Positions 7,991 through 49,197 of a DNA stretch of 63,645 nt are shown here, piece by piece; within the stretch, counting starts at the first letter, position 1, and each line of letters starts with the position of its first letter. The stretch lies in assembly GCA_009843635.1 (NCBI GenBank), contig VYDB01000078.1, forward strand, positions 1-63,645. The letters run 5' to 3'. The stretch comes from Gammaproteobacteria bacterium. Its GTDB lineage: Bacteria > Pseudomonadota > Gammaproteobacteria > Pseudomonadales > Azotimanducaceae. The notes under the pieces are model-generated. The model made no database searches. It was not told the DNA's origin and saw nothing but the letters and a program-made list of their open reading frames with translations. The position numbers were made by a program, and so were the translations under genes.

Positions 7991-8005
7991 TCCTGCCCCT
8001 GCCTG

Positions 8006-8908: not shown

Positions 8909-9023
8909 TGCAGTAGCGCACCGGGCAATCGACGCCCCTCCCATACAGATCCTCAAAGCGCACAACAAAGCGGTTTCCGAAGAATGAACCGGGTCGCCTC
9001 CCGTGACACCCGGCAGGAATGAA

Positions 9024-9053
9024 CCGGGGCGAACGGCAATCCGTTCGCCCCGG
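9024..9053. terminator. Bidirectional intrinsic terminator hairpin between convergent genes
   Basis: Perfect 13-bp inverted repeat ccggggcgaacgg-caat-ccgttcgccccgg. It lies between the + strand sulfotransferase (end 8908) and the - strand SPFH gene (end 9072). Confidence 0.55.
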
Positions 9054-9071
9054 TCTCAAGGCCGCCCGAGC

Positions 9072-10589: not shown

Positions 10590-10666
10590 GTGTTGGAATG
10601 CCGGACTCGAACCAGCAACCACCAGTTCCCAGACTGGAGCTCTACCCTATTGAGCTAATTCCCTGC
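10590..10666 (-). tRNA. tRNA-like element, apparently degenerate (Trp/Pro-like cloverleaf with defects). Possible pseudo-tRNA or integration remnant
   Basis: The reverse complement reads AGGGAAT-TA-GCTCAATAGGGTAGAGC-T-CCAGT-CTGGGA-ACTGG-TGGTT-GCTGG-TTCGAGT-CCGGC-ATTCCAA-CA. The D-arm and the T-arm (GGTTCGAGTCC) are canonical. The anticodon loop is only 6 nt, and acceptor positions 1-2/71-72 are A·A mismatches. Confidence 0.45.
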
Positions 10667-34728: not shown

Positions 34729-35844
34729 TTATAGATTCGCCTCAAGTGCTTCCAAAAAGCCTGCCGGATAGCGAAGGCGACCTTCGCGAGCGCGGCGCAC
34801 AAATCCACTCAAGGCGCGGGAAGAAAGATCGGGCCATCGCTTCGTCGCGAATGCTGAAAGCCGTCCTCGGCGTCGATGGACGGGGTGCTCGGACACGTTT
34901 GCCGACATCCTCGCGCCATCCATGCACCAAGCCGCAGTTGGCCATCGATCGTCGTTGGTCAGGGGTTCGTCTTCATTTGAGTCGTATTGCCCCGGTTCCT
35001 CCAGCCTGCGCCCGATCCACTCCGCGACCGGCACGGACACGGCGTTGCCAACCAAACGCCAGCGGTGTCGTTTGGACTTGCGGTCTCGCAGGGCGGACGT
35101 CCACCGTGCTGGAAAGCCCTGTAGCTGCTCAACGGTCTCGATTGTAGGCGTGGCGACCCGTCCGTCGGGGAGCAAGACTGCCGGCGGCGACGGAATCCCC
35201 AAGCCAGAACCTGCTTTGAGGGGAGGAACTGCGTCGGCGGTGATGCCGTGCCCGGATCGGCCCTCAGTCCAATAAAAGGCAATTGGATGGATTAGGTCCG
35301 CTCCCGGCCAACTCCGATTTGGTGCATCATCGGAAAGCAGAACATCGCGCGGGTCGTCGCTTTGGCTGGCGACGATAAAGACCCGTCGGCGTCTTTGCGC
35401 CAATCCGAATGCCCGGCTGTCAACCACCCGATAGGCCCAACGGTAGTCGAGCGCCTCAAGCTGCTCTAATATTCGCCGCATCGCGGCACCGCCGCCCAAA
35501 TGGAGCATGAAGTACACATTCTCGATGACGACCCACGGAACACGCCGCGCTTTGAGCAAGCGGAACAGGCTGTAAATGACTTGGCTTTTGTCACCTCGCA
35601 GCCCAGATTTGTCGCCCGCCATGGAGAGATTCTGGCAAGGGAAACCAGCGGTGACGACTTCGGTTCCTTCCGGCAGCGCCTTGAGTTGGGTGACGTCTGT
35701 ATCCACAAGCACATTGGGGAATCGATGACGAATCACCGCCAATGCTCGGCTGTCCTTCTCGCTCATCAGCAGTGTTTGGTGGCCTGACCGCTCCAGCCCC
35801 AACTCAAAGCCGCCGATGCCCGCGTACAGCCCGGAAACCAACAT
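34729..35844 (-). CDS. DNA (cytosine-5)-methyltransferase
   Basis: Motif I LYAGIGGFELG, motif IV GFPCQNLSMAG, motif VI ENV (VVIENVYFM). The ORF is 34729..35859. Confidence 0.85.
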   Translation of the reverse strand: MLVSGLYAGIGGFELGLERSGHQTLLMSEKDSRALAVIRHRFPNVLVDTDVTQLKALPEGTEVVTAGFPCQNLSMAGDKSGLRGDKSQVIYSLFRLLKARRVPWVVIENVYFMLHLGGGAAMRRILEQLEALDYRWAYRVVDSRAFGLAQRRRRVFIVASQSDDPRDVLLSDDAPNRSWPGADLIHPIAFYWTEGRSGHGITADAVPPLKAGSGLGIPSPPAVLLPDGRVATPTIETVEQLQGFPARWTSALRDRKSKRHRWRLVGNAVSVPVAEWIGRRLEEPGQYDSNEDEPLTNDDRWPTAAWCMDGARMSANVSEHPVHRRRGRLSAFATKRWPDLSSRALSGFVRRAREGRLRYPAGFLEALEANL

Positions 35845-37192
35845 GAACAGCGCCTCCAAAGCCGCCGAAGAACTTCATCATCTCTGCGGAGTGTACACAA
35901 AGCCCGCTACGGTGGACCGAATCCTCAACCTCGTTGGCTGGACCGCAGCCCAAGATCTCTCCGATGCCCGTCTGCTCGAACCAGCGGCGGGCGACGGCGC
36001 ATTCCTTGACGCGGCAGCGGAAAGACTGGTGAATTCACTGGCCAATCACGGCCATGAACCCAGAATCAAGAACCTCCGCGACCGCATACTGGCATTCGAG
36101 CTGGTACCCGAGGAAGCAGCGAAGGCAAGGCGGCGCGTGGCCACCCGCCTCATCGCTCTTGGCATTCATCAAGCGACGGCGCGAGCCTGCGCCAACGCTT
36201 GGGTGAAGACTGGGGACTTCCTCCTAGCCGACCGAATGCACAAGGGATTCAGCCACGTGGTTGGCAATCCACCCTACATCAGGTGGTCCAAGATTCCGTC
36301 CCCATTGAGGTCCGCCTACACCCGTCGCTTGCCGAAAACGGTGTCACGCGGCGACCTGTGTCTGCCTTTTCTGGACCGCTCATTCGAACTCTTGGCTCCC
36401 CAAGGAAAATGCGGGTTCATTTGCTCCGATCGCTGGCGATACGCAGGATACGGCGAGGCTTTCCGCCGGAAGTGGCTCCCGCTGATGGACATTGAGACGG
36501 AAGGCGCCGGGCGGCCAAAAGACGTTTTTCACAGGGACGTCTATGTGTACCCCGACATTTTACTGGCATCACGCCGCCGCCAACCCACATCAAACGGGAG
36601 AAGGCGGAGGAAGCGGGGCCAGAGGCTTACCGAGCTTGGCTGCACCATTCGCGTTGGACCAGCCCTTGGCGTGGCCGAGGCATTCCTGCTGAACCCCGAA
36701 GACAGTGAAGTCGAAGCGGAATTGCTGCACCCTTGGATCGACACCTGCGACATAAGCGCCGCGCGCATTCAGCCCAGCAGCCGCAGAGTCATCGCGCCAT
36801 ACCATGCTGATGGGACACTGATTAATCTTGAAGAATTTCCAGCACTTGCTGCTCGACTCGGCCTCTTTAAACAGCGCCTTGAGAATCGCTACATTGTCCG
36901 CCAAGGTGCTCCTTGGTACCGCACCATCGACCGGATACGAGCCTCCGATTGGTCCCCGCCCAAGCTACTTATTCCGGAACTTGCCAAAGTCCCCTTGGTC
37001 TCCCTCGATCGCAGCGGAGCCATACCTTCCCACGGCATTTACTGCATTTTCTCGCCTGAGCGGGACATTAACGAAATCTATGACCGCCTGAGCAACGGAA
37101 AACTCGCCCGAGCCCTCAGCCCAATTTCGCCGAAAGTAAAAGGAAGCTATACGCGCTGCTATGGGCGCTTTCTTAGTGCTATGGCAATCTAG
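35816..37192 (+). CDS. N6-adenine DNA methyltransferase, gamma class (Eco57I/TaqI-like orphan or Type II M)
   Basis: Motif X GVYTKP, motif I LEPAAGDGAFL, motif IV VVGNPPYIRW. It is divergent from the m5C MTase with overlapping 5' ends. Its 3' end overlaps the stop of a convergent gene. Confidence 0.8.
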   Translation: MPAYSPETNMNSASKAAEELHHLCGVYTKPATVDRILNLVGWTAAQDLSDARLLEPAAGDGAFLDAAAERLVNSLANHGHEPRIKNLRDRILAFELVPEEAAKARRRVATRLIALGIHQATARACANAWVKTGDFLLADRMHKGFSHVVGNPPYIRWSKIPSPLRSAYTRRLPKTVSRGDLCLPFLDRSFELLAPQGKCGFICSDRWRYAGYGEAFRRKWLPLMDIETEGAGRPKDVFHRDVYVYPDILLASRRRQPTSNGRRRRKRGQRLTELGCTIRVGPALGVAEAFLLNPEDSEVEAELLHPWIDTCDISAARIQPSSRRVIAPYHADGTLINLEEFPALAARLGLFKQRLENRYIVRQGAPWYRTIDRIRASDWSPPKLLIPELAKVPLVSLDRSGAIPSHGIYCIFSPERDINEIYDRLSNGKLARALSPISPKVKGSYTRCYGRFLSAMAI

Positions 37193-37821
37193 CTATCAAG
37201 GCTAGGGTTAAACAACCTTTGAATGATATTGCCGTATTCCCGCCTAAGCTTCACTCTGCCTGGAAAGACACGCTGCAGCAATTCATCCACTTTTCCATCA
37301 CTCAGACCATGCATTGCTATCACCATAGCAAGAAACCTACTAACCAAGGAGTTGCCCGGGATCGGAAATGCCGGATAACTTTCCGGTAACCAATCAGGCA
37401 CGTTAGGCAATGTAACTCCACGACGCCCAATTGTCTTGCAAAGCTGTATGTGATCGTATCCGTGAGCCCAGCCGGTTGCAGTATCCGCAGGTTCGATGCG
37501 AAACGCCAACTGACCTTCTCCTGCCAAGATTACCAATCGAAATGAAGTGCGCCCATTGGAACTAGGCACCGGCGAAAAGAAGGCACAGCCTACACCTCTC
37601 GCTTGGCACGGCATCGGGATCAACACCAAGTCCGAACTTTGGACTCCTGAAGAATCGTTGAGGACCCTACTTGCGATAGCATCACTTTCTGCAATTCTCA
37701 CACTTTGCCCAAGTCCCTTTTTTGCAAGACGCCGCAGGCCTAAGGGAAGTTCCTTCCACCTTCTAACCCCCCATAGTGCATACTGCCGTACAAACTCCTG
37801 ATCATCAGCCCAAGTGGTCAT
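37189..37821 (-). CDS. Hypothetical protein (210 aa), last gene of the GHKL-kinase operon
   Basis: ORF overlapping the upstream gene by 4 nt (37818..37821). Low-GC codon usage shared with the two upstream genes. No recognisable motifs. Confidence 0.5.
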   Translation of the reverse strand: MTTWADDQEFVRQYALWGVRRWKELPLGLRRLAKKGLGQSVRIAESDAIASRVLNDSSGVQSSDLVLIPMPCQARGVGCAFFSPVPSSNGRTSFRLVILAGEGQLAFRIEPADTATGWAHGYDHIQLCKTIGRRGVTLPNVPDWLPESYPAFPIPGNSLVSRFLAMVIAMHGLSDGKVDELLQRVFPGRVKLRREYGNIIQRLFNPSLDS

Positions 37822-39101
37822 CCGACGATGCGACTCTGCGGCGAAAAGCTGACATCCGTCGCTCTCATGGAGATATATCTACGTGGCCAGGAACCTTCAA
37901 TATCGGCCTCAAACTCCTTTGGTCTTGAATCACAGGTATCGGATTTGACTGTCAGGAACATTGAAACATCCTCGCAGAAAACTGCATCTGGCCAATCATC
38001 CTCTGACTCAAAGAAAAGCCTACGGAGTTGGTCATTTGCATCCAGCTTGGGCCACCAGAAGCATGGTGATGGCGTCCAACAGCTAGAATGGAATTCGGCT
38101 TCCTTGACATATCTCTCATACAACACTTTATCTAGTCCGTAGGGCGGCTGCCTTTCCTTAATGGCGTCATTCCACGCTGACAGTTCGCTAGCTGTCCCGC
38201 CAAGAAGGTGCGGCATTCTAGACAAGAGGTGAGGAAGATCAATCAGGACGTCTTGTGGTGCCAGGACCTCCCTACGTAGCCATCGGTCGAGTTCTGCTGA
38301 AGCAACGCGCGAAATTGCTCTCACCGCCAACGGTACGTCGTCGTTAGCAAGACTCAAGAGATCGTCCCTCATCTTAGGCGGAAGTGAACGGTTGATTTTG
38401 AAGAAGTCTCGAAACGTAACGGATCGCACCCCCTCATCATTAGCCGTTGGGCCTAAGGCTCCCTTTGCACGCCTTGACAGGTACTCTGTCGCGCTGTCTG
38501 GAAAATCCAAAGCCTCCCAGATCGAAGCATCGAGATTGTCGCGAACAAACGCGATCTGATCCCGCCTCTTTCCCGCAGCTTCGGGTAAACATGGCCAGTA
38601 CCAAGGGGCGAAGTCGGCATCGTAGGACTCTCGCCAAAGCCGGTGGTTAGAAAGGTGCTTCGTATTCAGTGCCAAGTCCGCTACGGATTCGTGGTCGCCG
38701 AACAAGTGACGTAGGTCGAAATCAACGTTTGGATTCTTGTTGAGAGAAACGATGTAGTCGATGTCCGTGAAGGCTCGAATGCGCCCAATGACCGATTCGG
38801 CTGTCAGCCGAACACCACCAAAGTCCAGTTCAGCGAGGTTGTTGTCAACAATAGCGAGTTCACAACCCGTCAGCTTCTTGCACATCACCTGTTGTTCAGA
38901 GTCGACTTTATCGAGCTGGAAAATTTTGTCCGTCGATCTAAACAGTTCCTCCAACGCTTGCTTGAGCCACTTACCGTGGAGCATATTCACTTCGCAATCT
39001 GACTCCTTGAGGTGGCGTTCAGCTCCTTCGCACCCCTCTTTACGATCGTCGCAAATCAATATCCTAGTTATCATGTCGTCATTCCTTCCAGGAAATCTCA
39101 A
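37818..39101 (-). CDS. Protein with a putative receiver (REC)-like N-terminal domain and a 300-aa C-terminal domain of unknown function (candidate effector)
   Basis: N-terminus MITRILICDDRKEG... (REC beta1 DD pair), later ...CELAIVDNNL (candidate phospho-acceptor Asp), ...YIVSLNKNP (Ser/Lys of beta4/beta5). Its start overlaps the upstream GHKL-kinase gene by 23 nt. Confidence 0.5.
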   Translation of the reverse strand: MRFPGRNDDMITRILICDDRKEGCEGAERHLKESDCEVNMLHGKWLKQALEELFRSTDKIFQLDKVDSEQQVMCKKLTGCELAIVDNNLAELDFGGVRLTAESVIGRIRAFTDIDYIVSLNKNPNVDFDLRHLFGDHESVADLALNTKHLSNHRLWRESYDADFAPWYWPCLPEAAGKRRDQIAFVRDNLDASIWEALDFPDSATEYLSRRAKGALGPTANDEGVRSVTFRDFFKINRSLPPKMRDDLLSLANDDVPLAVRAISRVASAELDRWLRREVLAPQDVLIDLPHLLSRMPHLLGGTASELSAWNDAIKERQPPYGLDKVLYERYVKEAEFHSSCWTPSPCFWWPKLDANDQLRRLFFESEDDWPDAVFCEDVSMFLTVKSDTCDSRPKEFEADIEGSWPRRYISMRATDVSFSPQSRIVG

Positions 39102-41361
39102 TAGTTGTCGAATATCCGGTCCTAGGTGCCACGAACCGAACGTCTGCCCCTCTTTCCGCAGCGATCATTCTGACAATGGCGAGCCCGAGACCCTGTCCGC
39201 CCAAGGCAATAGAGCGGTTGACATCGCTTATCTCCGTCTTCCTTTCGAATGGCTCGAATAGAACGCTAGCATCCTCTATCGGCACCGCCAGCCCACCGCC
39301 AGTATCGCTGACTTGGAAACTCTGGCTACGACGCTCGATCGCACCATCAAATCGCACAGCTTTTCGTTCACTGTCGAGCATGGCGTCCCACGCGTTGAAC
39401 AGAATGTTCTGAACAACGGCACTCCATTCAACGAAGGCACCCATGGGGAAACGAAGGGTCTTCGGAATACCACTGAAATCGAAGGCCACGCGGGGCATTC
39501 GGGGTCGAACTGCCCTTACCACCTGACTGGCAACCAAGGAAACAGGCAACCGGCGCGTTGCTTTCCGGTCTTCCGCATCGGTCAACGGCGAAAACAGCTG
39601 CCGGTAGGAGTTAAAGCGCTCGTTGAAAGTGGCCAAGTCAGCTACGGCCTTTTCAAGAACAGGTGATGGGGATTCTTTCGATAGCTTCTTCAATACTTCA
39701 GCCACGTCCGCAACTAGATTCGCTTCACGGGCAATTTCGTGATCCATGGCCAACGCAGCCATTCCAGCTGTGGCGAGTGGTCCGAGGATGGCAGCTCTGC
39801 TATCCAAAGCCTCGCTTTCGGTCTTGACGGCTTGGTCGACGGCAACCAGCTCCCGTCGAACTTCCCTATACACCTCATCCGGTATATTCGCCTTTGCCTT
39901 TTCGATGGTCTTGAGCGCTCCCGACAAGACTACAGTCGGTGGCTCTTTAACCCGCCTGTCCTGCACTAGCCGGTCAGCCAACGCTCGGTATCGGTTGGCA
40001 TAGAAGTCCACCGAGTAGCGCACCAAGTCTCGAAGCTGGTCAAACGCACGGTTGGGAGCAAGACGGTCCCTCCCAGGCTGAATTTGCAGGCACTGGCCTG
40101 AACTGCCGAGTTGCTCAAAGATGTGTCGCTCGTGATTGGTATTCACTTCGACAGCGCCGAATATACGACCGGGATTGGGAAGATCCAGAAGATAGCGGCC
40201 CGAAGTCCTCAAGCGATCCGGCAGGAGTTCGGAAGTTACCAATCGTCGACCTTGATCAGCAGCAATGTTCAACCAATCTTGTCCCCCTCGGTCTTGGGAC
40301 GAGCCGTAGTAGGGCAAACGGAAGCCAGAATCGTACACGGACACATTTCCATGAGTGCGCAAGTACTCGCGCATGGCGTTCACTGCGAGTCCTCCAGGCT
40401 GCATTCCTTCTGGCTTAAAAATCAGTACTTCAAAACGCGCTTGATCGAGAGCAGGGAGAATTCGATGTTCTGAGAATTCGCCAGCAGACTGAACCTCAGG
40501 CTTCAAATTGCGAACTACGGGAAACCTCACCGTTTCGCGGAACGTCTGAAGTTCTTCCAGTCCTTTTGGATAATCTTCTGCGAACTCCACGCTTACATTG
40601 GCCTTGCCGCTACCCCCACCGCCTCGTCCATCCTCAAGTATGCCTGTAATGCGAGCCTTCCAGTTCGAAAACAGCGTTTGATGCATCTTGTCAAAGCTCT
40701 CTTCGGCGCTTGCGACGCCCGGAGCGTTCAAGTCAACGTAGAAGTCGAACGCCGTCTTGCCTTTGGTCCGTCGATTCGCCCCACGAAAAGGAGAACGCAA
40801 CGTCCACACGTCCCTGCCAAGCTCTTCGATAGCTTTGGTGCCCCAATCCGTTTTCAAACCGGTGAGGATGATCTTTGTCCCATGGATCGAGTTATCCGCG
40901 TATGGCCCTCTTCCGGATCGCGAATCCCAGTCGACATTAACCCTATTAATGTCGTCGCCACTACGTATGGTTGTCCAGTCCACAACCGCGTATAACATCT
41001 GGTTTGGACTGGTCTTTGAATTGCTCTGCAGTTCCATCTCGTCCGCAAGGAACTGGGCAGACAATCGGCCGATTCCCTTGGAGCCTGTCATCGGCCGTTT
41101 GAGTTCGCGCGAGACCCGTTCGGCAGCCCTGTGAGTAGTCCCAACGCGTAACCAAAAGTTGTGAAACTCCTGCTCCGAGATCCCATGGCCGTCGTCTGTC
41201 ACGACAATCCGGTCGTTTTCGATGTCTATTCGGCAGGTATGGGCATCCGCATCGTAGGCATTCTTGACGAGTTCAGCCAAAGCAATATGCGCCCGACCGA
41301 TCAGGCGCTCGCCCAACTCGCGGAGCAGGGCAGCATCTACGCTGAAGTGTGCGGACTTCAT
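39079..41361 (-). CDS. Atypical sensor kinase: N-terminal GHKL (MORC/Hsp90-like) ATPase domain fused to a C-terminal histidine-kinase core (H-box plus HATPase_c)
   Basis: N-terminal Bergerat fold motifs ELVKNAYDADA (N-box), VTDDGHGIS (G1), GSKGIGRLSAQF (G2). Mid-protein LAMDHEIAREAN (H-box-like). C-terminal NILFNAWDAM (N-box), VSDTGGGL (G1), GGQGLGLAIVRMIAAERGADV (G2). 760 aa. Lowest-GC stretch in the window. Confidence 0.7.
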   Translation of the reverse strand: MKSAHFSVDAALLRELGERLIGRAHIALAELVKNAYDADAHTCRIDIENDRIVVTDDGHGISEQEFHNFWLRVGTTHRAAERVSRELKRPMTGSKGIGRLSAQFLADEMELQSNSKTSPNQMLYAVVDWTTIRSGDDINRVNVDWDSRSGRGPYADNSIHGTKIILTGLKTDWGTKAIEELGRDVWTLRSPFRGANRRTKGKTAFDFYVDLNAPGVASAEESFDKMHQTLFSNWKARITGILEDGRGGGGSGKANVSVEFAEDYPKGLEELQTFRETVRFPVVRNLKPEVQSAGEFSEHRILPALDQARFEVLIFKPEGMQPGGLAVNAMREYLRTHGNVSVYDSGFRLPYYGSSQDRGGQDWLNIAADQGRRLVTSELLPDRLRTSGRYLLDLPNPGRIFGAVEVNTNHERHIFEQLGSSGQCLQIQPGRDRLAPNRAFDQLRDLVRYSVDFYANRYRALADRLVQDRRVKEPPTVVLSGALKTIEKAKANIPDEVYREVRRELVAVDQAVKTESEALDSRAAILGPLATAGMAALAMDHEIAREANLVADVAEVLKKLSKESPSPVLEKAVADLATFNERFNSYRQLFSPLTDAEDRKATRRLPVSLVASQVVRAVRPRMPRVAFDFSGIPKTLRFPMGAFVEWSAVVQNILFNAWDAMLDSERKAVRFDGAIERRSQSFQVSDTGGGLAVPIEDASVLFEPFERKTEISDVNRSIALGGQGLGLAIVRMIAAERGADVRFVAPRTGYSTTIEISWKE

Positions 41362-41656: not shown

Positions 41657-44596
41657 TCACTCTAAAACCCCAAACACCTTCATCACCTCATCCCCCAGGT
41701 GGTTGATCACCTTCACGGCAATCCGCCCGGTCGAGGGCTTTGGGAATGCCCGCGAGGTGTCGCTGTTCAGGGTGGCCCAGGCTTCGAGGTCGATTTCGGC
41801 CTTTAGGGTGGTCTTGAGGGATTTGTAGGGGTCGCCGGCGCCGAGGAAGTAGGCTTGGCGGACGAAGAAGCTCTCTTCGTTGTAATCGGTGTCCACGAAC
41901 CAGCAGGCGATGCCCTCGGCCTCGTCGCTGCGGACTTCGCCGGTGGAAGGGTCGAAGACGTCGACGCCGTTGATCTTCACCTTGAGCCAGTCCGGTTCGT
42001 CGTCGGGGCCGGCGGCGGGTTCGATGTCGATGTCGGGTTCGCCGAAGATGACGAAGAGGTTGGCCTTGTCGGTCTTTTTGAGGTCGTCGGCCATGTGCAG
42101 GTCGGCGTTCATGCGGGCCTTGAGGACTGGGACGCGGCCGAGCTTGTTGAACTCGGTGGCGTGGGCTTCGTAGTTGAAGGCGCAGGCGATCAGGGCGTCG
42201 AAGCCCGCTTCGGCGGCTTCACGCACAGCGCTCACCAAGTCGGTGCGGGAGACGGTGCCGAACTCTGGGCCGATGAAGATGCCGGCCCGCTGCTCTTTGG
42301 CGGTTTTCGCGTCGCCACCTTCCGCGTAGCGGCCTTCCGCGCAGACAAGGCTGCCGGGCCAAGGGTTGAGCGACGTGAATTTGATGTGGCCCCGCTTGTC
42401 GGCCTGCTGGACACCGGCTGTGCGCAGGTTTTCGAGCACCATGTGGGCGAAGTCCTGAACTGGTGTGCTGGCGCCCGCATCATAGGTGGCACGGGGCTCG
42501 GCGATCATCAGCTTGTCGTCCTCGTCTAGTGCCGCCAATCGGTGCGGCGACAAGCTCTCTACCGTGAAGGGGCCAGCCACGCGGGTCTTGGCCCTGTCTT
42601 CGTATGGTTTGTCGTAGAGGGTTTCGTACTCGGCGCGGGCAGCGATGCAGGCGTCGATCTCACGCTGGCGGGCGATGCGGGCCTCCCAGAGGCGTGTGTG
42701 GGCCTCGCGGGCCGCGTCGTTCGAGCCTTGATCCAGTTCGGCGGGAACTTCCCATTCGAGGAAACCGTTGGCTGGAGCGGACTCGCCAGACGGCAAGGCG
42801 ACGGTAGCGTCCTCGGCGGCAGTGAAATCGATGGACTCGCCCTTGCGGCCACCGATTTCGACCTCGAAAGGCATGGCATGGCCCTGCAAGGCGTGGTTGA
42901 GGTCGGTGAGCGCGGCTTCGACTTCCGGCTGCAGCCGCTCGTAAATCACGTCGATTTCGGCGTTGTTGGCGATGGACTTCAAGGTGATGTGCGGCACCCG
43001 TTGGTACACGAAGCCTTGGCGGATATCACTGTAGGTGGGTGATTCGGAGGGCGCGTTGCGCGACAGCTCCGCCTCCTTGCGCTGGCCTTCCGGGCTGTCA
43101 GCCAAGAGGTAGTAGGGGTAGCGTGCGCCCATGATGCGAGAGCGAGCGAGGGCTAGGGCGACGCGTGAGGTGTCGATGGTGATCCAGCGGCGACCCCATT
43201 GTTCGGCGACATAGGCCGTGGTGCCGGAGCCGCAGGTAGGATCGAGGACTAGATCACCTGGGTCAGTAGCCATGAGCAAACAGCGTTCGATCACTTTGGC
43301 GTTGGTTTGAACGACGTACATCTTGTCCATGCCACTTCCAGAGGCTGTGTCTGCCCAGAGGTTCGAAAGTGGATTTACAGGGTTGTCACCCACAAATCGT
43401 ACATAGTTGAGTGTGCGTCCCACATTTGCAACGCGATCTGATCGCAGAAGCCGCGCCATTCCCTGTTCGTTAGTAGACCAGCTTCTTCCAGCGGTGGGTG
43501 CGAATGTCCCTCCGAACGCGATTGCAGGATACACGCAACTAGGCGTCCTACCAGCGGCAAGTAGAATTTGATACCTAGCGAATTGGTCTATCGAGGGCGA
43601 CTCATTTGGTTGAATCCGCCTAAACCTGCCGACCGTGTCCTTAACTAGAGAATATGCGGCATCGTTTTCTGGATCCTTGTGTGCAAAGAGAAGCCGACGT
43701 TTCGCTTGGCCGTTATACCTTTCGTACCAAAGTATGAAATCCGCAACTTGAGCCATCTGACCCTTGCCCAGGCCAGCGGTCTTTTTGATGGTGAGGATTG
43801 TGACAAAGCAGTCTTCTCCAAACACCTCATCCATCACCGCTCGCACCCGATGTACATTCTCATCCCCAATCTGCACGAAGATGCTCCCGCTCTCCGTCAG
43901 CAAATCCCGCGCTGCCGTCAGCCGGTCCCGCAGATAGGTCAGATACGAGTGAATCCCGTCCCGCCAAGTGTCCCGAAACGCCTTCACCTGTTCCGGCTCC
44001 CGGGTGATGTGCTCCGGCTTGCCGTCCTTCACGTCGCGGTTGGTGGTTGACCACTGGAAGTTGGAGTTGAACTTGATCCCATAGGGCGGATCGATGTAGA
44101 TGCACTGCACCTTGCCGCGCAGGCCCTCGCGCTCGGCGAGGCTGGCCATCACCTGCAAGGCGTCGCCCAAGATCATCCGGTTCGACCAGTTGGCGTCGTG
44201 CTGGTAGAACTCGGTCTTGGCATCGCCATCCGGCAGGCCGTTGAAGTCGCCGAAGATGTCGGTCTGGAAGCCGGGCTCGGCGGCATCCTTCTCGGCCCGC
44301 GCCTTGCGGCTCATGCGGGCCAGATCGTCGATCAGCACCTTCGGATGCACCTTCTCCTGTATGAACAGTGGCGGTGCCTGCACCACCAGATTGGACCAGT
44401 CCGCCATATCCTTGCCGCGCCAGACCAGTTGCGGATCGAGGTCCGGGTTGCGGCGCTCGTAGGCAACCTGAATGGGGTTCTGATCATCTGAACGCATCAC
44501 CGGCTGATACTCGGCGGTGGGGATATTGCGGCGCTTGGCCCCGTCGTGGGTGAACGCCTCGACGGCCTTGCGCCTTTTGGTCCGGCTGCGCGCCAT
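41657..44596 (-). CDS. mod: Type III restriction-modification Mod-like DNA methyltransferase (N6A/N4C), unusually long at 979 aa with an extra C-terminal region
   Basis: Catalytic motif IV CIYIDPPYGIKFNSNF, AdoMet motif VLDPTCGSGTTAYVA. It lies downstream of the res gene on the same strand. Confidence 0.8.
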   Translation of the reverse strand: MARSRTKRRKAVEAFTHDGAKRRNIPTAEYQPVMRSDDQNPIQVAYERRNPDLDPQLVWRGKDMADWSNLVVQAPPLFIQEKVHPKVLIDDLARMSRKARAEKDAAEPGFQTDIFGDFNGLPDGDAKTEFYQHDANWSNRMILGDALQVMASLAEREGLRGKVQCIYIDPPYGIKFNSNFQWSTTNRDVKDGKPEHITREPEQVKAFRDTWRDGIHSYLTYLRDRLTAARDLLTESGSIFVQIGDENVHRVRAVMDEVFGEDCFVTILTIKKTAGLGKGQMAQVADFILWYERYNGQAKRRLLFAHKDPENDAAYSLVKDTVGRFRRIQPNESPSIDQFARYQILLAAGRTPSCVYPAIAFGGTFAPTAGRSWSTNEQGMARLLRSDRVANVGRTLNYVRFVGDNPVNPLSNLWADTASGSGMDKMYVVQTNAKVIERCLLMATDPGDLVLDPTCGSGTTAYVAEQWGRRWITIDTSRVALALARSRIMGARYPYYLLADSPEGQRKEAELSRNAPSESPTYSDIRQGFVYQRVPHITLKSIANNAEIDVIYERLQPEVEAALTDLNHALQGHAMPFEVEIGGRKGESIDFTAAEDATVALPSGESAPANGFLEWEVPAELDQGSNDAAREAHTRLWEARIARQREIDACIAARAEYETLYDKPYEDRAKTRVAGPFTVESLSPHRLAALDEDDKLMIAEPRATYDAGASTPVQDFAHMVLENLRTAGVQQADKRGHIKFTSLNPWPGSLVCAEGRYAEGGDAKTAKEQRAGIFIGPEFGTVSRTDLVSAVREAAEAGFDALIACAFNYEAHATEFNKLGRVPVLKARMNADLHMADDLKKTDKANLFVIFGEPDIDIEPAAGPDDEPDWLKVKINGVDVFDPSTGEVRSDEAEGIACWFVDTDYNEESFFVRQAYFLGAGDPYKSLKTTLKAEIDLEAWATLNSDTSRAFPKPSTGRIAVKVINHLGDEVMKVFGVLE

Positions 44597-44613
44597 GGAT
44601 CAATACTTCCAGG

Positions 44614-45402
44614 CTACGCCGCTACGCGATGCAGGAGCTTGCGCTTGAAGTCTTCGTGCGCCTCCAGCGACGAGATCATTTCACCGCCGACATCGGACAG
44701 CCTAGCGAGATCGGCTCTTGGGATCGCAGCCTGGTCTTCGAAGATAAGTATGGACTCGAAGCTGAGGTCGTGCCTGTGGAAGTGCGACAGCATGATCGTG
44801 GTGAGGCGTGCCTTGTCGCGGTTCGGGACGCCATAGAGAAACACCGGGTCACCTCTCTCTGCCTCAATGCGGTAGTCCACCAAGTAAGCTGACGCGTTGG
44901 GAACGGTAGGCACATGGTCACGTTCGGTTCGAGCCTCATCCACAAAACTGAAAAGGAGTTCAGCCAAGTCATCATAAAACGTGGAACCAACATTCGAGCG
45001 CGACAGCAGCGTCAGGTCGTAAACTCGAGTCAGGGCTTGCCCGAAGGTGAAGACCGCTTCGGGCAAGCGTTCCGGTGCCGTATCAAGGCAGAGCACGCCC
45101 CGGTCTCCGTCCCAGCTCAAGCCGGTTTCCCCCATAATTCGCTCAAGCAGCATTCCCCGCGTTCCATCCAAAAACGAATCCACTTCGTGGTCGTAGCTGA
45201 TATGCATCAGCGTGTGGCCACAGTCGGACAAGCGAAGCCCGCCCGCTGCCGACTCGGAAAGATGAATCGGATAGCGATCACCGTCAGGAAACGAAAAGTG
45301 CGTGCGCAACATCAAAGCGCCGTCCGGACGCTGGTCGATTCGCACGTCTTCGCAAAGACGGGCACAAAGCAGAGTTCGAAGCGCGTCGGTGTCTAGAGCC
45401 AT
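44614..45402 (-). CDS. Hypothetical protein (262 aa) interposed between res and mod
   Basis: ORF whose start codon shares 1 nt with the stop of the upstream 156-aa ORF (45402). No recognised motifs. Confidence 0.5.
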   Translation of the reverse strand: MALDTDALRTLLCARLCEDVRIDQRPDGALMLRTHFSFPDGDRYPIHLSESAAGGLRLSDCGHTLMHISYDHEVDSFLDGTRGMLLERIMGETGLSWDGDRGVLCLDTAPERLPEAVFTFGQALTRVYDLTLLSRSNVGSTFYDDLAELLFSFVDEARTERDHVPTVPNASAYLVDYRIEAERGDPVFLYGVPNRDKARLTTIMLSHFHRHDLSFESILIFEDQAAIPRADLARLSDVGGEMISSLEAHEDFKRKLLHRVAA

Positions 45403-45872
45403 CAGAGCAACTTCTGTTGGTGCTGGACTTTCAGCCCACTCACCTTGTAATCCTCTAGGAGGCAGGCAAGCGCCCCATCCAAGGAATCGAATCGACTCGT
45501 TTCGGTTGCGCCCGAGTCCGCTCTTCTGCCTGCCGCTATGGCACTCTCCGAGGCCTTATGAATGTGCGGGCGATAGCTAATGTTGCCATGCTCGTGGCTC
45601 GGACCGTTGTAACGCGCAAGCATTAGCTTCGGGCCGCCGCGGGGCAGATAGGCAATCCCGCAGGAAAAGTCTTGCGAATCCCCAAGGTTCTGCCTTTGGT
45701 AGATCAGGAATCGGTCCTCACCGTCGGATGTTCCGACCAACTGAAAGTTGCGCTGCATATGAGCCGGTCTCTCCTTGGGTTTTTCCTGCCAATGCGCTCC
45801 AGGATTGGTGACCCGCTTTGACATCGACCGAAGCGCATCCAATTCCCCTTCGGTGTATAGCTTGGTGGTCAA
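45402..45872 (-). CDS. Hypothetical protein (156 aa) interposed between res and mod
   Basis: ORF translationally coupled to the 262-aa ORF. Contains SHEHGNISYRPHIHKA (His-rich, possibly metal-binding). No recognised family. Confidence 0.45.
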   Translation of the reverse strand: MTTKLYTEGELDALRSMSKRVTNPGAHWQEKPKERPAHMQRNFQLVGTSDGEDRFLIYQRQNLGDSQDFSCGIAYLPRGGPKLMLARYNGPSHEHGNISYRPHIHKASESAIAAGRRADSGATETSRFDSLDGALACLLEDYKVSGLKVQHQQKLL

Positions 45873-46026
45873 GCGGATAGCCTCATTAGGGAAGACTCAC
45901 AACCCCGCGCAGCGACAGGCTCGACCGTCAACGGTGCGGCAGCGACCCTTCTGAAATCCCAGGGCGCTGCATCCCAATAGCCGCTCTCTTCGGCCTCCCG
46001 AACCGGAACTTTGAGCCTCACTTCAC

Positions 46027-49000
46027 CTAACTCACGTACTGTTGCTTGGATGGTAACCCAGTTTCGCGGCCTTCCAGCACAAAGCCATCCGCCAATGCGC
46101 ACTCGATAACGCGACCCAGTTCTTCCTCCAACTTGGCCGCCAAGTCATCCTGCATCGTGTGCACATCCCGCAACTCCACGAACGCCCACCGGCCATAGCA
46201 CCCATGCGCATTGACGCCCGGCACCCAATAGGTGTCCATGGTGTCCTTCTTGGCCTTGGCATCCTCGCCGCGATAGCCCTTGACCTCCAACACCAGATGC
46301 AAGGGACCATCGGCATCCTGTCCGTCGTCGATCAGGGCAATGAAGTCCGGGATGTACCTGCGGGTCTCCCCGGCGAACGAATAGGGCACTTCAAAGCCAA
46401 GATTGTGGTTCTTCACCCAAGCCAACACACCGGTGTGCCCATCTAGGATGCGACACAGCTCCCCCTCCCAATCGCTGTCGAGGATTGCCCAGTTCAGATG
46501 GCACCGTCCACCGGCTTCCGCCTTGTAGCGCGAGGTTCGGGAAGTGGTGAAGTTGACGTGCCGGGTGGTGCCGGTCGGATTGAAGGGATCGAGCACGGCC
46601 TTCACGGGCTGGCGGTCTAGCTCAGCACGCGTGATTGCCGCCGAAATGCGCTCGCAGGCCATGTCCGCCAGATCAGCAATCATCAACTGCGCCGGACGGG
46701 TGTTGCCTTGGCAGATGAGGCATTCTTTAAGCCATTGCCCTGCGATGCGCTTCAACTGGCCAAACAAGTGCAGTTCCGGCTCGCCATTAGGATCGCGCCA
46801 GTGGTTGTACAGCAGCCTCAGAGTGAGGTGGTAGAGCAAGGCGCGCGGTCGTACACGATCCAGATGGTCCACAGTCAGATCGTGCCCTTGGCCGATGATG
46901 CCTTGGTTGTGGGTGATGGTCGGCCCCACTAGTTTCGGGGTGAGTTCCAATCGGGAATCCTCGGTGAAATCGGCGGTGAGCTGGTCGTCCGGCAGTTCCA
47001 CACGGTAGCCGGCCACTTGGGGGAAGCGGATTTCGGCATGGTCCCGCTCAGGCGAGAGCGCCTTCACCTGCACGGTCTCGGCGGGCTTTTGGGGTGGGGC
47101 GACCACTGGCTTGGCGGTGAAGTCGAAGGGGATGCCGAACACATCAGCATACTCGGCATCGAACAGGCCCTGTTCGTTGAGCGCGTATGACTGCCGGCGC
47201 AGGGAGCGGCCAATCACCTGTTCGCAAAGCAGTTGGGTGCCAAAGGCGCGCAGGCCGAGCACATGGGTGACGGTATTGGCATCCCAACCTTCGGTTAGCA
47301 TTGCCACTGAGACCACGCAGCGGATTCCACCTCCGAGGCGGCCAGCCTTGCCCACCGTGTTCATCACTTCGCGCAGCAGATCCTCGTCTTTGAGCTGTTC
47401 CGCCTGCTGGCGGTCACCCGTACGAGCGATGATTTCGCGGCGGAAGCGTTCGATTTCGTCGGCAGCGGCTGTGCGGAAGTTTCTGTCTAGGGCCTCGCCG
47501 GACTCGAGCTGGCGGCTGTCGATAAGTAAGGTTCGCGGCCTCGCCAGCGGTTCGCCCTGTTCATCAAAGTTGCGGAAGAGCGCAAGCCGCCCGTTGTGGA
47601 CAACTCGCTCGCCACTATCCGCTTCGCGTTCGAAGCCAGAGACGTAGTCGTACACCAGCTTCGAGGTTGCCGTGTTGTTGCATACTATGATGAAGCATGG
47701 TGGCACCTCGATTTTCGCCTCGTTCCAAAGGCGAAAAGTCTCCTCGTAGTGTCCGTAAAGCGCCTCCAAGGCCGTTTGCAGTTCCGGAGGCAGTTTCAAC
47801 GGGTCGAGTTGCGAACCAGCTCCCTTGCCCTTCTTCGGCATCTTCTTGCCGATATGCTCCCAAAGGTTGCGATACATCGGCATCTCATCGTCGGGCACGT
47901 TGTCCACCACTGGCACCCTCGGCAGTTTGACGATGCCGCACTCGATGGCATCCATCAGCGAGAAGTCGCTGACCGTCCAAGGAAACAGAGTGCCTTCCGC
48001 GTAGCCCGAACCGCGTAGGAAGAAGGGCGTTGCGGAGAGGTCGATCACCTTTGCTAGACCGAGCTGGCTTTGTGCCGCTTCGAGTCCTGATATCCACACC
48101 CGCGCCGCTTCTAGATTGCGTTCCGCCTCGCGGCGGTCGTCGCCGACCAGCTTGCCCTCATCGTCGTCACCGGGCTTTTCCCGATAGCAGTGGTGAGCTT
48201 CGTCGTTGAGGACGAGGATGCCTTTCATGGTCATGAGTTCGGGCATCACGCGGGCCAGCATCTGGCCTTCGGTTTCGCGGCTGGCAATCGCTGGCCCGCG
48301 ACCTTGGAGCAGCGCCCGGCTGCCCTTGGCGAGGTCCAACGTCTCGCGCAGTTGGAACGCATGGTAGTTGGTGATGACGATCTTGGCCTTGTCCAGTTCC
48401 CGCAGCATGTCGGCAGGCACCAGTTCGCGACTGGCGTAGTAGCTATCGGGGTCGTTGGGCTGGAGCACCCGCAGACGGTCGCGGATGGTGATGCCGGGCG
48501 CGACCACGAGGAAACCGCGGGTGAAGCGCGGGCTGTTCGGACGACGCACGGCGTTCACCGTCTGCCAAGCGATGAGCATGGCCATCACCGCAGTCTTGCC
48601 CGCGCCGGTAGCGAGCTTGAGAGCCATGCGCGACAGACCGGGGTTGGCCTGTTGGCTCGCGGCTTCGATCTGTTCCAGAAAGCGGCTGCCGCCCTTGCCA
48701 AGGCTGGGGGCAACCTCGGTAAGCCAGATTGCGGTCTCCACCGCCTCCACTTGGCAGAAAAATGGGCGGATGCCAGCGAACGGATGATGCCGCCAGTGCT
48801 TTAGCAACCGGGCAGTCTCAGGGGTCACCCGCCATTGCGCTTCGGGCAGCCCCCGCCACGCGGTGAGTTCCTGCCGCAGGCTATCGATTAACGCCGTCAG
48901 CTCGTACTGCTGGTCATCTGCATCAAGCGCTTGGCTCTGCGCGTCAAAGGCAAATTGATCCTGTACCTTTCCTCCCGCCTTGCGCGGCTTCGGAATTGGC

Positions 49001-49197
49001 GAGATGAATGAAACCTCGCGCCTGCCTTTGCCGATTGCGTCCGTCGGCTGCCGCCCCTCATCAAGCACCCAGTGCCGGGTCGGAACCTCGTAGGGAGAAT
49101 TGAGGATGGGGGATTGGTGAAAGGCATCCGGCATAGGGGGCATTTTAGCCGAAGGCTTGGAATCACGCTCTTGGCCAGCGCCACCGCGTGGTCCCAA
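46027..49197 (-). CDS. res: Type III restriction endonuclease Res subunit (SF2 helicase plus C-terminal PD-(D/E)xK nuclease)
   Basis: Helicase motif I LATGAGKTAVMAMLI, motif II VLNDEAHHC (DEAH), motif VI QVIGRSLRR. C-terminal nuclease IPDFIALIDD...LVLEVKGY. 1056 aa. Confidence 0.85.
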   Translation of the reverse strand: MGPRGGAGQERDSKPSAKMPPMPDAFHQSPILNSPYEVPTRHWVLDEGRQPTDAIGKGRREVSFISPIPKPRKAGGKVQDQFAFDAQSQALDADDQQYELTALIDSLRQELTAWRGLPEAQWRVTPETARLLKHWRHHPFAGIRPFFCQVEAVETAIWLTEVAPSLGKGGSRFLEQIEAASQQANPGLSRMALKLATGAGKTAVMAMLIAWQTVNAVRRPNSPRFTRGFLVVAPGITIRDRLRVLQPNDPDSYYASRELVPADMLRELDKAKIVITNYHAFQLRETLDLAKGSRALLQGRGPAIASRETEGQMLARVMPELMTMKGILVLNDEAHHCYREKPGDDDEGKLVGDDRREAERNLEAARVWISGLEAAQSQLGLAKVIDLSATPFFLRGSGYAEGTLFPWTVSDFSLMDAIECGIVKLPRVPVVDNVPDDEMPMYRNLWEHIGKKMPKKGKGAGSQLDPLKLPPELQTALEALYGHYEETFRLWNEAKIEVPPCFIIVCNNTATSKLVYDYVSGFEREADSGERVVHNGRLALFRNFDEQGEPLARPRTLLIDSRQLESGEALDRNFRTAAADEIERFRREIIARTGDRQQAEQLKDEDLLREVMNTVGKAGRLGGGIRCVVSVAMLTEGWDANTVTHVLGLRAFGTQLLCEQVIGRSLRRQSYALNEQGLFDAEYADVFGIPFDFTAKPVVAPPQKPAETVQVKALSPERDHAEIRFPQVAGYRVELPDDQLTADFTEDSRLELTPKLVGPTITHNQGIIGQGHDLTVDHLDRVRPRALLYHLTLRLLYNHWRDPNGEPELHLFGQLKRIAGQWLKECLICQGNTRPAQLMIADLADMACERISAAITRAELDRQPVKAVLDPFNPTGTTRHVNFTTSRTSRYKAEAGGRCHLNWAILDSDWEGELCRILDGHTGVLAWVKNHNLGFEVPYSFAGETRRYIPDFIALIDDGQDADGPLHLVLEVKGYRGEDAKAKKDTMDTYWVPGVNAHGCYGRWAFVELRDVHTMQDDLAAKLEEELGRVIECALADGFVLEGRETGLPSKQQYVS

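Follow-up and report, generated by a model that had tools for sequence, protein, structure and literature searches.

What is a protein that combines two ATPase modules, followed by a receiver-like protein and a small protein of no known fold, doing beside DNA methyltransferase genes in a gammaproteobacterial genome? The three genes lie on the minus strand of the window (the whole stretch of 63,645 nucleotides that was analysed): gene 1 at 39079-41361 (760 aa), gene 2 at 37818-39101 (427 aa) and gene 3 at 37189-37821 (210 aa). They had been singled out as the most AT-rich part of the window, and their GC content (0.507-0.549, with flanks at about 0.65) is indeed its lowest. The original prediction regarded them as a novel signal-transducing defence operon embedded among restriction-modification (R-M) genes.

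A five-gene cassette shared by distant bacteria

The genes had been described as overlapping, which is correct for genes 2 and 3 (4 nt). For gene 2 the most likely start is the ATG at 39074, giving a protein of 418 aa instead of the 427 aa obtained from the TTG at 39101, as public gene calls and almost all of the homologues begin at the equivalent position. This start leaves a gap of 4 nt between genes 1 and 2 in place of an overlap. The genes of the operon are translationally coupled, through this gap and the 4-nt overlap.

The two genes that follow code for DNA methyltransferases. One, on the plus strand (35816-37192), is a gamma-class N6-adenine enzyme of the Eco57I/TaqI type with an NPPY motif (Pfam Eco57I, E 4.7e-14; PADLOC MTase_II PDLC03313, E 2.7e-88); its Mycolicibacterium homologue additionally matches TaqI_C. 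It converges on gene 3, the two sharing 4 nt at their 3' ends. The other, on the minus strand (34729-35859), is a Dcm-like C5-cytosine enzyme (Pfam DNA_methylase, E 2.6e-42, and TIGR00675; PADLOC MTase_II PDLC03324, E 1.6e-117), with its start probably at M6 (position 35844). The two methylase genes are divergently transcribed and have a short control region in common.

All of the 27 related genome loci contain the same five genes, and in 26 of them the order is also the same: kinase, receiver, small protein, reversed m6A methylase and m5C methylase (in the exception, L032, the methylase pair is inverted). Identity to the homologues ranges from 44 to 82% for the m6A and from 51 to 91% for the m5C methyltransferase. 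The hosts belong to Pseudomonadales, Nitrospinota, Vicinamibacterales, Alphaproteobacteria, Gemmatimonadales/Longimicrobium and Spirochaetia, i.e., to at least six phyla-level groups, and the same five genes were also found on an actinobacterial plasmid. The regions flanking the cassette are unrelated among the 27 loci. Conservation of the gene order across phyla and the size of the gene 2 family (632 representatives at 50% identity) indicate that the triad is not a chance association, and the comparison of loci shows that the two adjacent methyltransferases belong to one module with it. The R-M genes of the original prediction do adjoin the triad, but "embedded among" them understated the relationship, since both methyltransferases are parts of the cassette at every one of these loci. 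No conventional restriction endonuclease was recognisable in the cassette by Pfam, PADLOC or NCBIfam, so the two methylases would be orphans were it not for the triad.

The invariant core is the triad of kinase, receiver and small protein, which is also preserved in variants that carry Vsr or a C5 methylase only. In most of the distant variants the triad is linked to a C5 methylase and/or Vsr, the latter lying directly downstream or being fused to the C5 methylase; Vsr is absent from the cassette of the window and from all 27 five-gene loci. There is an exception to the coupling with methylation: one variant (L044) has the triad and no C5 methylase within 8 kb. In different genomes the cassette has type I, type III, GmrSD, SacI or ApaLI systems as neighbours, and the homologues stand in R-M or defence surroundings in the loci examined, not in core regulatory ones. 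In one genome gene 2 has been knocked out by an IS element, as would fit a costly or toxic system. The gene family was absent from the phage collection searched, and the plasmid search gave only two distant homologues (25-29% identity).

Gene 1 joins a GHKL ATPase to a histidine kinase core

Gene 1 encodes a soluble protein, with no hydrophobic segment suggesting a membrane span in a sequence scan, made up of a paraMORC/MutL-type GHKL ATPase, a conserved middle domain, DHp helices and a CA domain. The ATPase domain (aa 1-180, 40822-41361, minus strand as for all gene 1 features) includes E30/N34, D56-G58-G60, G93-K95-G96-G98 and G161-T162, and is matched by HATPase_c_3 (aa 25-136, E 5e-20). 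The DHp (H-box) helices span approximately aa 505-600 (39562-39849) and the CA domain, where the N, G1, F and G2 boxes lie, aa 640-760 (39082-39444; HATPase_c at aa 649-757, E 3e-18). The motifs on which the original prediction was based are all there, ELVKNAYDADA (aa 30-40), DDGHGIS (aa 56-62) and GSKGIGRLS (aa 93-101) towards the N terminus and AMDHEI (containing H541), NAWDAM (aa 656-661), DTGGGL (aa 686-691) and GGQGLGLA (aa 721-728) towards the C terminus, and their columns are invariant in 26 orthologues (largely so for NAWDAM).

Matches to the family profile are MutL/PMS2/MORC3 for the N terminus and the DHp+CA region of FixL/HK853/CpxA/EnvZ for the C terminus. In the DHp alignment the stretch "LataGmaalalnHEla" of the profile is paired with "LSAMGEMASALAHELNQP" of FixL, and the conserved H-box His of FixL (AHELNQP motif) falls in the column of the family's invariant His. 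Candidate for the phospho-acceptor is this residue, H541 (39739-39741), which together with E542 is unchanged in 26 sequences. In the alignment of the 26 orthologues all of the GHKL and N/G1/F/G2 residues are invariant, including, in the CA domain, N652, N656, D686, G688, G690, F702, E703, F705, G721, G722 and G724-L727. The Pfam matches and the alignment to FixL, CpxA and HK853 with the His in register show that gene 1 unites a GHKL ATPase with a genuine and complete DHp+CA kinase core.

The similarity of gene 1 to the BbrUII/HgiDII restriction enzyme family (NCBIfam NF050001) is confined to the N-terminal 180 aa (E 5e-29), the region also matched by PADLOC REase_II PDLC03419 (aa 6-183). Since the score is 101 bits where 550 are required, and about 180 of the 659 model positions are covered, gene 1 is not a member of that family.

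A receiver with a candidate effector domain and a universal third protein

The receiver of gene 2 (aa 10-131 in the 427-aa numbering; 38709-39074, minus strand) has an acidic pocket formed by D18, D19 and D86 (38844-38846). Neither Response_reg nor Response_reg_2 of Pfam matches it, and the latter matched no tested member of the family (632 representatives at 50% identity). Structure prediction confirmed that the N-terminal part has a CheY fold, as had been proposed. In the AF2 model of gene 2 (pLDDT 77, pTM 0.81) the alpha-2 helix of the receiver is very long and its beta-5 region irregular. Of the receiver motifs originally pointed out, the DD pair (aa 18-19) and D86 are invariant throughout the family; conservation of the S and K of "SLNK" does not extend to its second branch, and the Thr/Ser and Lys of canonical receivers are not family-wide features. 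The catalytic, phospho-donor and phospho-acceptor residues of the kinase/receiver pair are all intact.

The rest of gene 2 (aa 132-427, approximately 290 aa; 37821-38708, minus strand) is a candidate effector domain, with D129, D142, D288, P290, H291, E377, D378 and R408 invariant family-wide in the C-terminal region of the protein. The model is most confident at aa 170-370 (pLDDT >85) and least so at aa 132-147 and 393-427 (<50), and aa 170-340 are largely helical. This part had been reported as devoid of recognisable domains and it continues to be so: gene 2 has no match in Pfam, NCBIfam, PADLOC or PHROGs, and searches for solved structures and for sequence relatives of the C-terminal domain found none. 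Gene 3, the universal third component, matches no known fold and no solved structural relative of it was found. It has an invariant cluster, R108-x-E110 ... H120-x-Y-x-H124-x-Q126 (37444-37500) ... P150-A-F-P ... G172. Neither in this protein nor in the C-terminal domain of gene 2 was a nuclease or another known effector fold found.

Relationship to described systems

The claim of novelty has to be withdrawn for the class as a whole. [quoted passage not shown] The resemblance is extensive: a soluble protein with HATPase_c_3, an H-box His followed by an acidic residue (HEF_HK) and HATPase_c, directly downstream, a receiver-like protein in which no further known domain occurs, linkage to C5 methylase and Vsr and a wide but patchy distribution. 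On the other hand, gene 1 scores below threshold for HEF_HK (PF19191; aa 533-594, 16.8 bits, cut-off 24.1), only 7 of the 26 orthologues match that model, weakly (best E 7.7e-5), and Response_reg_2 is unmatched. The universal third gene and the fixed five-gene layout with m6A and m5C methylases, the latter typical of the main branch of the window family, do not appear in the abstract, Results or Discussion of that paper. Genes 1-3 belong to a divergent, unannotated branch of this known class.

The paraMORC ATPases of the GHKL class that accompany R-M systems (Iyer, Abhiman and Aravind, 2008, PMC2292703) and the GHKL restriction enzymes of the BbrUII/HgiDII family share with gene 1 a homologous N-terminal ATPase of approximately 180 aa and are adjoined by C5 methylases, Vsr and R-M genes; the histidine kinase core from aa 505 onwards sets gene 1 apart from BbrUII/HgiDII. 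Among the Shedu systems, type 1F has a receiver-DUF4263 nuclease beside a histidine kinase and type 1D a GHKL-Shedu protein such as VcSduA (PMC10441436, PMC12137116), and the proposal here too is that an immune effector is kept under the control of a GHKL ATPase or a phosphoreceiver. With classical HisKA two-component systems (FixL/FixJ, CpxA/CpxR, HK853/RR468) the alignable DHp+CA core and the CheY fold with its acidic pocket are held in common, whereas the window system lacks a membrane or PAS-type sensor, a DNA-binding output domain and the conserved T/S and K of the receiver, and its genomic context is R-M and defence.

Two plasmids, pTPRO7 of Salipiger profundus and pBM374-1 of Klebsiella variicola, carry sibling systems in which a GHKL-kinase gene is followed by those for a small protein and an HNH endonuclease; an N6 methylase belongs to the same cluster. 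Their kinase-like protein has the same Pfam pair and 24-29% identity over the N-terminal half. Their small protein has only 168-227 aa, and what comes after it is recognisable as an HNH nuclease, whereas the window receiver is extended by a domain of about 290 aa and a gene without known fold comes next. The small protein of Klebsiella weakly matches OKR_DC_1_N, which we take to be a CheY-like fold, and the receiver likeness of that of Salipiger is suggestive only (hhalign E 0.075).

Detocs, reportedly described by Rousset and co-workers in 2023, is said to consist of a kinase (DtcA), a receiver acting as a buffer (DtcB) and a receiver-PNP effector (DtcC). The three-gene logic is comparable, with a sensor kinase that would phosphorylate a receiver-effector and a third protein that may modulate it. 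As the original prediction had noted, sensor and effector differ from those of Detocs: PADLOC gave no match to it, or to any other system, the effector of the window has no PNP nucleosidase and the third protein no receiver, the sensor is a GHKL of the DNA-enzyme type, and the linkage to DNA methylases is tight.

A possible mode of action and its alternatives

Our preferred interpretation, about which we are evenly divided between confidence and doubt, is that 34729-41361 is a horizontally mobile R-M-type defence cassette of five genes, with an effector gated by phosphotransfer from kinase to receiver. The stand-alone m6A and m5C methyltransferases would label the host DNA as self, protecting it, and the three-gene operon would be the attack arm, presumably against phages. 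Gene 1 may be a cytoplasmic dimeric sensor-transmitter, in which a GHKL ATPase and middle domain of the BbrUII/HgiDII kind would engage DNA, presumably unmodified or foreign. The position of the nuclease in those enzymes appears to be occupied by a complete HisKA-type kinase core, and for this reason we propose that sensing is converted into autophosphorylation of H541. The phosphate would pass to D86 of the gene 2 receiver and free the C-terminal domain (with its D/D/D-x-P-H/E-D/R set) to act, most likely on DNA, by itself or jointly with gene 3. The latter, with its invariant R-E-H-H-Q cluster, would be an obligatory partner, either catalytic or DNA-binding, or else a phosphatase/buffer against autoimmunity. 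Points that weigh against this model are the failure to find a nuclease or another known effector fold in gene 3 or in the C-terminal domain of gene 2, a receiver that lacks the canonical Thr/Ser and Lys and escapes the Response_reg models, the L044 variant, and the absence of the family from the phage collection, with only two distant homologues on plasmids.

The presence of both methyltransferases in 27 of 27 loci places the logic of the cassette nearer to R-M than to Detocs. The same linkage, together with that to a C5 methylase and/or Vsr in most of the distant variants, weighs against a Detocs-like abortive infection in which a phage cue is sensed and the receiver-effector and gene 3 kill or arrest the cell by a non-nuclease activity, the methylases being separate and merely co-transferred. 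Such a function would be in keeping with the passage from kinase to receiver-effector and a possibly phosphate-buffering third protein, with the variant (L044) that has no C5 methylase nearby and with an effector domain that matches no known fold; we judge it rather unlikely, given the lack of any Detocs or PNP-type match in PADLOC and a sensor that is a DNA-enzyme-type GHKL and not a peptide-binding module. The kinase/receiver pair might instead control how strongly the linked methyltransferases are expressed or how active they are, in an epigenetic role, and not be the restriction arm itself. The signalling cascades controlling R-M systems proposed in PMC8011034, the control region in common to the divergent methylase genes and the helical stretch at aa 170-340 of the gene 2 model, which could hide an unrecognised DNA-binding domain, all point that way, and still we find this improbable.

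The lack of conservation of the receiver Thr/Ser and Lys, the failure of the Response_reg models, the unusual alpha-2 and beta-5 elements of the predicted structure and the sub-threshold HEF_HK scores could also mean that there is no phosphotransfer at all, the C-terminal GHKL being a second ATPase or dimerisation clamp and the CheY-like domain a pseudo-receiver, used as a structural adaptor by an ATP-dependent restriction complex of several subunits. However, the His-Glu pair, every ATP-binding box in the CA domain and all three Asp of the receiver are invariant among sequences only 25-35% identical, which is hard to explain without catalysis and makes this quite unlikely. Very improbable, finally, is a role outside defence as a repair accessory, with a MutL-like GHKL assisting Vsr-type very-short-patch repair of the T:G mismatches derived from the linked C5 methylase. 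MutL does stimulate Vsr in E. coli, the N terminus of gene 1 matches MutL/PMS2, and Vsr lies directly downstream or is fused to the C5 methylase in the variants mentioned; but it is missing from precisely the five-gene loci, window included, and is anyway common beside C5 R-M systems (PMC2292703). A system with an additional m6A methylase, mobile across phyla, low in GC and found beside defence genes points to conflict rather than to housekeeping repair.

The triad and its attached methylases

The three minus-strand open reading frames of the original prediction are present in the window: gene 1 (39079-41361), coding for a GHKL-ATPase of 760 aa with a histidine-kinase core, gene 2 (37818-39101), coding for a receiver-like protein, and gene 3 (37189-37821), coding for a protein of 210 aa. 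Together they do form the lowest-GC stretch of the window (GC 0.51-0.55 versus ca. 0.65), and all the motifs quoted for them were recovered, on columns that are invariant or largely so among 26 orthologues. According to public gene calls and homologue alignments, gene 2 begins with the ATG at 39074 (418 aa); this leaves 4 nt between genes 1 and 2, and genes 2 and 3 share 4 nt. No hydrophobic segment suggesting a membrane span appears in any of the three proteins. Promoter and terminator sites between 34.5 and 41.8 kb were no more numerous than expected by chance, and neither island-flanking repeats nor a tRNA integration site could be convincingly identified at the cassette.

A scan with one genome per species retrieved 27 loci from Pseudomonadales (the window itself is part of a gammaproteobacterial MAG), Nitrospinota, Vicinamibacterales, Alphaproteobacteria (among them the cultured Pelagibacterium halotolerans and Sphingosinicella sp.), Gemmatimonadales together with Longimicrobium, and Spirochaetia. 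The gene order is always kinase, receiver, small protein, a reversed Eco57I/TaqI-like m6A methylase (35816-37192, plus strand, in the window) and a C5 methylase (34729-35859, minus strand), with the sole exception of one locus (L032) in which the methylase pair is inverted. The flanks, on the other hand, differ from locus to locus. The triad had been described as embedded among restriction-modification (R-M) genes; it does have R-M neighbours, but the m6A and C5 methylases are parts of the cassette itself, found in 27 of the 27 loci, and match the PADLOC type II methylase models with E values of 2.7e-88 and 1.6e-117, respectively.

In each of the 27 five-gene loci the receiver gene lies next to the kinase gene, as it does in the five variants with intact genes that were inspected. 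A plasmid of Mycolicibacterium arabiense (L034) carries the five genes rearranged; a metagenome contig (L040) has a Vsr-C5 methylase fusion followed by the triad; a Magnetococcales genome (L042) has a C5 methylase, the triad and Vsr; Hyalangium rubrum (L043) has the triad and Vsr, with a C5 methylase 3 kb away; and a metagenome-assembled chromosome (L044) has the triad alone, within a type I R-M locus. Since all of these variants keep the triad, it is the invariant core, to which methylases are nearly always attached. In L044 the triad (5818-9907) lies between hsdS/hsdR and hsdM, with an IS element and an AAA_15/DUF3696 gene nearby, and the surrounding 8 kb contain no C5 methylase.

At their 5' ends, the longest open reading frames of the two divergently oriented methylase genes share 44 nt (35816-35859). 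Sequence conservation suggests a start at M6 (35844) for the C5 methylase and at 35816 or 35843 for the m6A methylase; with either m6A start, the control region between them is very short or overlapping.

The kinase protein

Gene 1 had been predicted to combine a GHKL ATPase with a complete histidine-kinase core, and this architecture was borne out. Pfam identifies HATPase_c_3 at aa 25-136 (E 5e-20) and HATPase_c at aa 649-757 (E 3e-18), a pair present in 26/26 orthologues. In a profile built from these orthologues, the N terminus is matched to MutL, PMS2 and MORC3 and the later part to the DHp and CA domains of FixL, HK853, CpxA, EnvZ and SrrB (E 1e-8 to 5e-5), with the invariant H541-E542 aligned to the His of the FixL H-box (AHELNQP). 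Both the GHKL motifs (E30/N34, D56-G58-G60, G93-K95-G96-G98) and the kinase boxes, namely N (N652, N656), G1 (D686-G688-G690), F and G2, are invariant among the 26. The N-terminal region is also related to the restriction enzyme family BbrUII/HgiDII (NF050001; aa 6-181 against positions 3-179 of a model of 659, E 5e-29), and PADLOC REase_II models match the same 180 aa. Membership of the BbrUII/HgiDII family was rejected, as the match reaches 101 bits versus a cut-off of 550 and covers the N-terminal ca. 180 aa only; the likeness ends at about aa 180 and the kinase core begins at aa 505. Given the MutL/MORC3/BbrUII-type matches at one end and the FixL-type matches at the other, gene 1 is, judging by its sequence, a paraMORC-type GHKL ATPase carrying a genuine kinase core.

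The receiver-like protein

In order to describe gene 2 (residues follow the 427-aa numbering) we used an AlphaFold2 model with 30 homologues as input (pLDDT 77, pTM 0.81). The CheY fold proposed for its N terminus is confirmed because the structural matches of this model in the PDB (Foldseek) are almost exclusively receivers, with probabilities up to 0.99. An alignment of both family branches, with identities down to 25%, shows an invariant acidic pocket (D18, D19, D86) and further invariant residues at N121, F128-D129-L130, D142, D288-x-P290-H291, E377-D378 and R408. Of the receiver motifs originally pointed out, the DD pair and D86 are thus invariant, but S119 and K122 of 'SLNK' vary in the second branch; the sequences therefore indicate a receiver that keeps the phospho-acceptor pocket and misses the canonical T/S and K. 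Neither Response_reg (PF00072) nor Response_reg_2 (PF19192) was matched in the window protein, 30 close and 10 distant homologues and the plasmid variants, the latter domain in 0 of ca. 43 family members in a scan run without a PF19192 positive control. Pfam gave no match on 30 members even at E values up to 10, and none of the 240 homologues listed by two homologue searches had a precomputed Pfam match.

The C-terminal ca. 300 aa had been regarded as devoid of recognizable domains, and they remain so: gene 2, like gene 3, has no match in Pfam, NCBIfam, PADLOC or PHROGs, the profiles of both proteins found no counterpart among all PDB chain sequences, and aa 165-427 of the model are matched by no structure in the PDB, a comparison that covers solved structures. 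No nuclease fold was found in the PDB for this model either. With 632 representatives at 50% identity the family is large; it is also compact and conserved across phyla. The two homologue searches yielded 607 and 736 clusters (90% identity), among which all the listed named members are 'hypothetical'. There were no homologues in phage records.

In two genomes (L009, 8527-10000; L032, 10814-12135), gene 2 is interrupted by an insertion of 1.3-1.5 kb. The insert of L009 contains, by eye, a transposase-like ORF of 432 aa on the strand opposite to gene 2, which suggests that an IS element inactivated the receiver-effector gene.

The small protein

Only 10 homologues of gene 3 were found by phmmer. 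In 26 of the 27 loci, however, tblastn places it after the receiver gene, ORF inspection revealed a truncated copy in the remaining one (L024), and profile comparison together with ORF inspection located it in the distant variants as well. A signature found throughout the family is R108-x-E110 ... H120-x-Y-x-H124-x-Q126 ... P-A-F-P ... G172. The description of gene 3 as unknown stands after the searches described for gene 2. The family includes two folds that were modelled with confidence, have invariant polar clusters and lack a relative among solved structures, the set with which they were compared. In the Magnetococcales locus L042, the gene 3 homologue (9267-9958; YRFE ... H-x-Y-Y-H-x-Q ... 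YPAFP) is uncalled in the public record, and an uncalled Vsr-like ORF comes after it.

Comparison with known systems

The operon had been put forward as novel, which has to be revised, as the class was already predicted computationally. The purely computational work in question (Bellieny-Rabelo et al., 2021; PMC8011034) describes paraMORC-derived kinase-like proteins with HATPase_c_3, HEF_HK (PF19191) and HATPase_c. They are linked in 91.6% of cases to receiver-like proteins (Response_reg_2) and show an association with C5 methylases, Vsr and type II R-M genes; a regulatory role was speculated for them. Our family shares with them the kinase with both ATPase domains, the receiver fold with its acidic pocket, the gene adjacency and the link to C5 methylases and R-M. 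It differs in giving no Response_reg_2 match (in the scan without positive control). HEF_HK is matched weakly: sub-threshold but at the expected position, on the H-box of gene 1 (aa 533-594; 16.8 bits versus a cut-off of 24.1), and by 7 of the 26 orthologues (best E 7.7e-5), the His-Glu pair being invariant. The window system is a real, well-conserved, divergent and unannotated variant of a predicted class and not categorically new. No later functional study mentioning these domains was found in the literature searched; DefensePredictor lists a predicted, unvalidated system with HATPase and REC domains.

Among other systems, a canonical two-component system has in common with gene 1 the HisKA-type DHp with its His and the CA domain, whereas its PF00072 receiver with T/S and K is not matched by gene 2. 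There are analogies with GHKL-Shedu and with Shedu type 1F (a receiver-DUF4263 protein beside a kinase), but type 1F was rejected since the DUF4263 PD-(D/E)xK domain is absent (Pfam on 30 gene 2 members and PDB search). R-M systems share with the cassette the linked DNA methyltransferases. No known nuclease domain was found in any of the five cassette proteins (Pfam, NCBIfam, PADLOC and PDB structure searches), and the C-terminal domain of gene 2 and gene 3 are candidates for the endonuclease.

Possible function

The strongest reading, to which we give about an even chance, is an R-M-type defence cassette with an effector gated by kinase-to-receiver signalling. The methylases would mark self DNA, the GHKL-kinase would sense DNA and transfer a phosphoryl group to the receiver-gated effector (gene 2), and gene 3 would be an obligatory partner. 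Domain and fold identities, conserved residues, synteny and context are shown, and from these DNA sensing, phosphotransfer, the chemistry of the effector, protection by methylation and defence itself are inferred. The main weaknesses of this reading are that no nuclease is recognizable, that the receiver is atypical and that the triad occurs occasionally without a methylase. An improbable alternative is that the kinase/receiver pair is a regulator of the methylases, a role close to that speculated for the 2021 pair. Equally improbable is an abortive-infection module like Detocs, the resemblance noted at first. A kinase gene followed by that of a candidate receiver-effector is indeed present, but the DtcA/DtcB/DtcC set, with its receiver-PNP effector and receiver-only buffer, is not. 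PADLOC identified neither Detocs nor any other known defence system, in agreement with the mismatch with described systems that had been pointed out.

Slightly less probable still is a look-alike that works without phosphorylation, for which the variable S119 and K122 could speak, the invariant acidic pocket and H541 being on the opposite side. An accessory of very-short-patch repair seems very unlikely; Vsr accompanies the triad in three of the variants.

Classical restriction enzymes unite recognition and cleavage in one complex. In gene 1 a full histidine-kinase core follows the GHKL domain shared with BbrUII/HgiDII, and the receiver, a protein of its own, carries the likely effector. A more specific form of the R-M-type reading, which we consider tentative, is that recognition and cleavage are split by a phosphorelay, with a MORC-like GHKL clamp reading the DNA status and His-to-Asp transfer acting on an effector made of the gene 2 C-terminal domain and gene 3. 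If true, this would be the first R-M-type immunity under two-component gating and would involve a new nuclease or DNA-acting fold. Two-component phosphotransfer would then have been recruited to license DNA restriction, and kinase signalling would be tied to the MORC/MutL ATPases found in R-M systems, from which eukaryotic MORCs have been proposed to descend. With its two uncharacterised folds, the window system offers a clean target for experiments, and since cultured carriers exist the question can be approached directly at the bench.

Genomic context and sibling systems

Type I, type III-like, GmrSD, SacI, ApaLI and HEPN systems are found as neighbours of cassette or triad loci. In the window, a second, type III-like R-M system lies directly upstream of the cassette (41657-49197, minus strand), with an N6_N4 methylase of 979 aa (PADLOC MTase_III, 1249.5 bits), a DUF1828 protein of 262 aa (weak PDC-M24B match), a 156-aa protein (phrog_27326, E 4e-35) and a BPTD_3080-family ResIII endonuclease of 1056 aa. 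Next to the cassette, L009 has homologues of both this methylase (80% identity) and this endonuclease (88%), and L032 has one of the methylase (62%). A second low-GC patch (0.55-0.57) at 52226-56289 (plus strand) encodes a 389-aa protein without family match, overlapping a 978-aa AAA_16 and TPR (STAND-like) NTPase. Homologues of both (60% and 50% identity) are found ca. 3 kb from the cassette in another locus (L004), and the two genes are a candidate defence system present repeatedly in these islands. The only tRNA call of the window (ARAGORN) is a tRNA-like gene at 10592-10664 (minus strand), 'tRNA-??? (gg)', with an undetermined two-base anticodon loop.

On plasmids of Salipiger profundus and Klebsiella variicola, the gene of a homologous GHKL-kinase is succeeded by those of a small protein and an HNH endonuclease, and the cluster also contains an N6 methylase; in Klebsiella, the small protein weakly matches a CheY-fold-type domain. 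Profile-to-single-sequence comparison (hhalign) with the receiver-like proteins of these sibling systems was not significant. Further sibling variants appear in Hymenobacter, Enterobacter mori and Acinetobacter baumannii. In A. baumannii VB1190 (L036, 6629-14450) a related GHKL-kinase with weak HEF_HK is followed by an uncharacterised protein of 637 aa, with a PAPS-reductase-like gene and a large ATP-binding protein on the opposite strand, and may represent the same signalling chassis equipped with other effectors.
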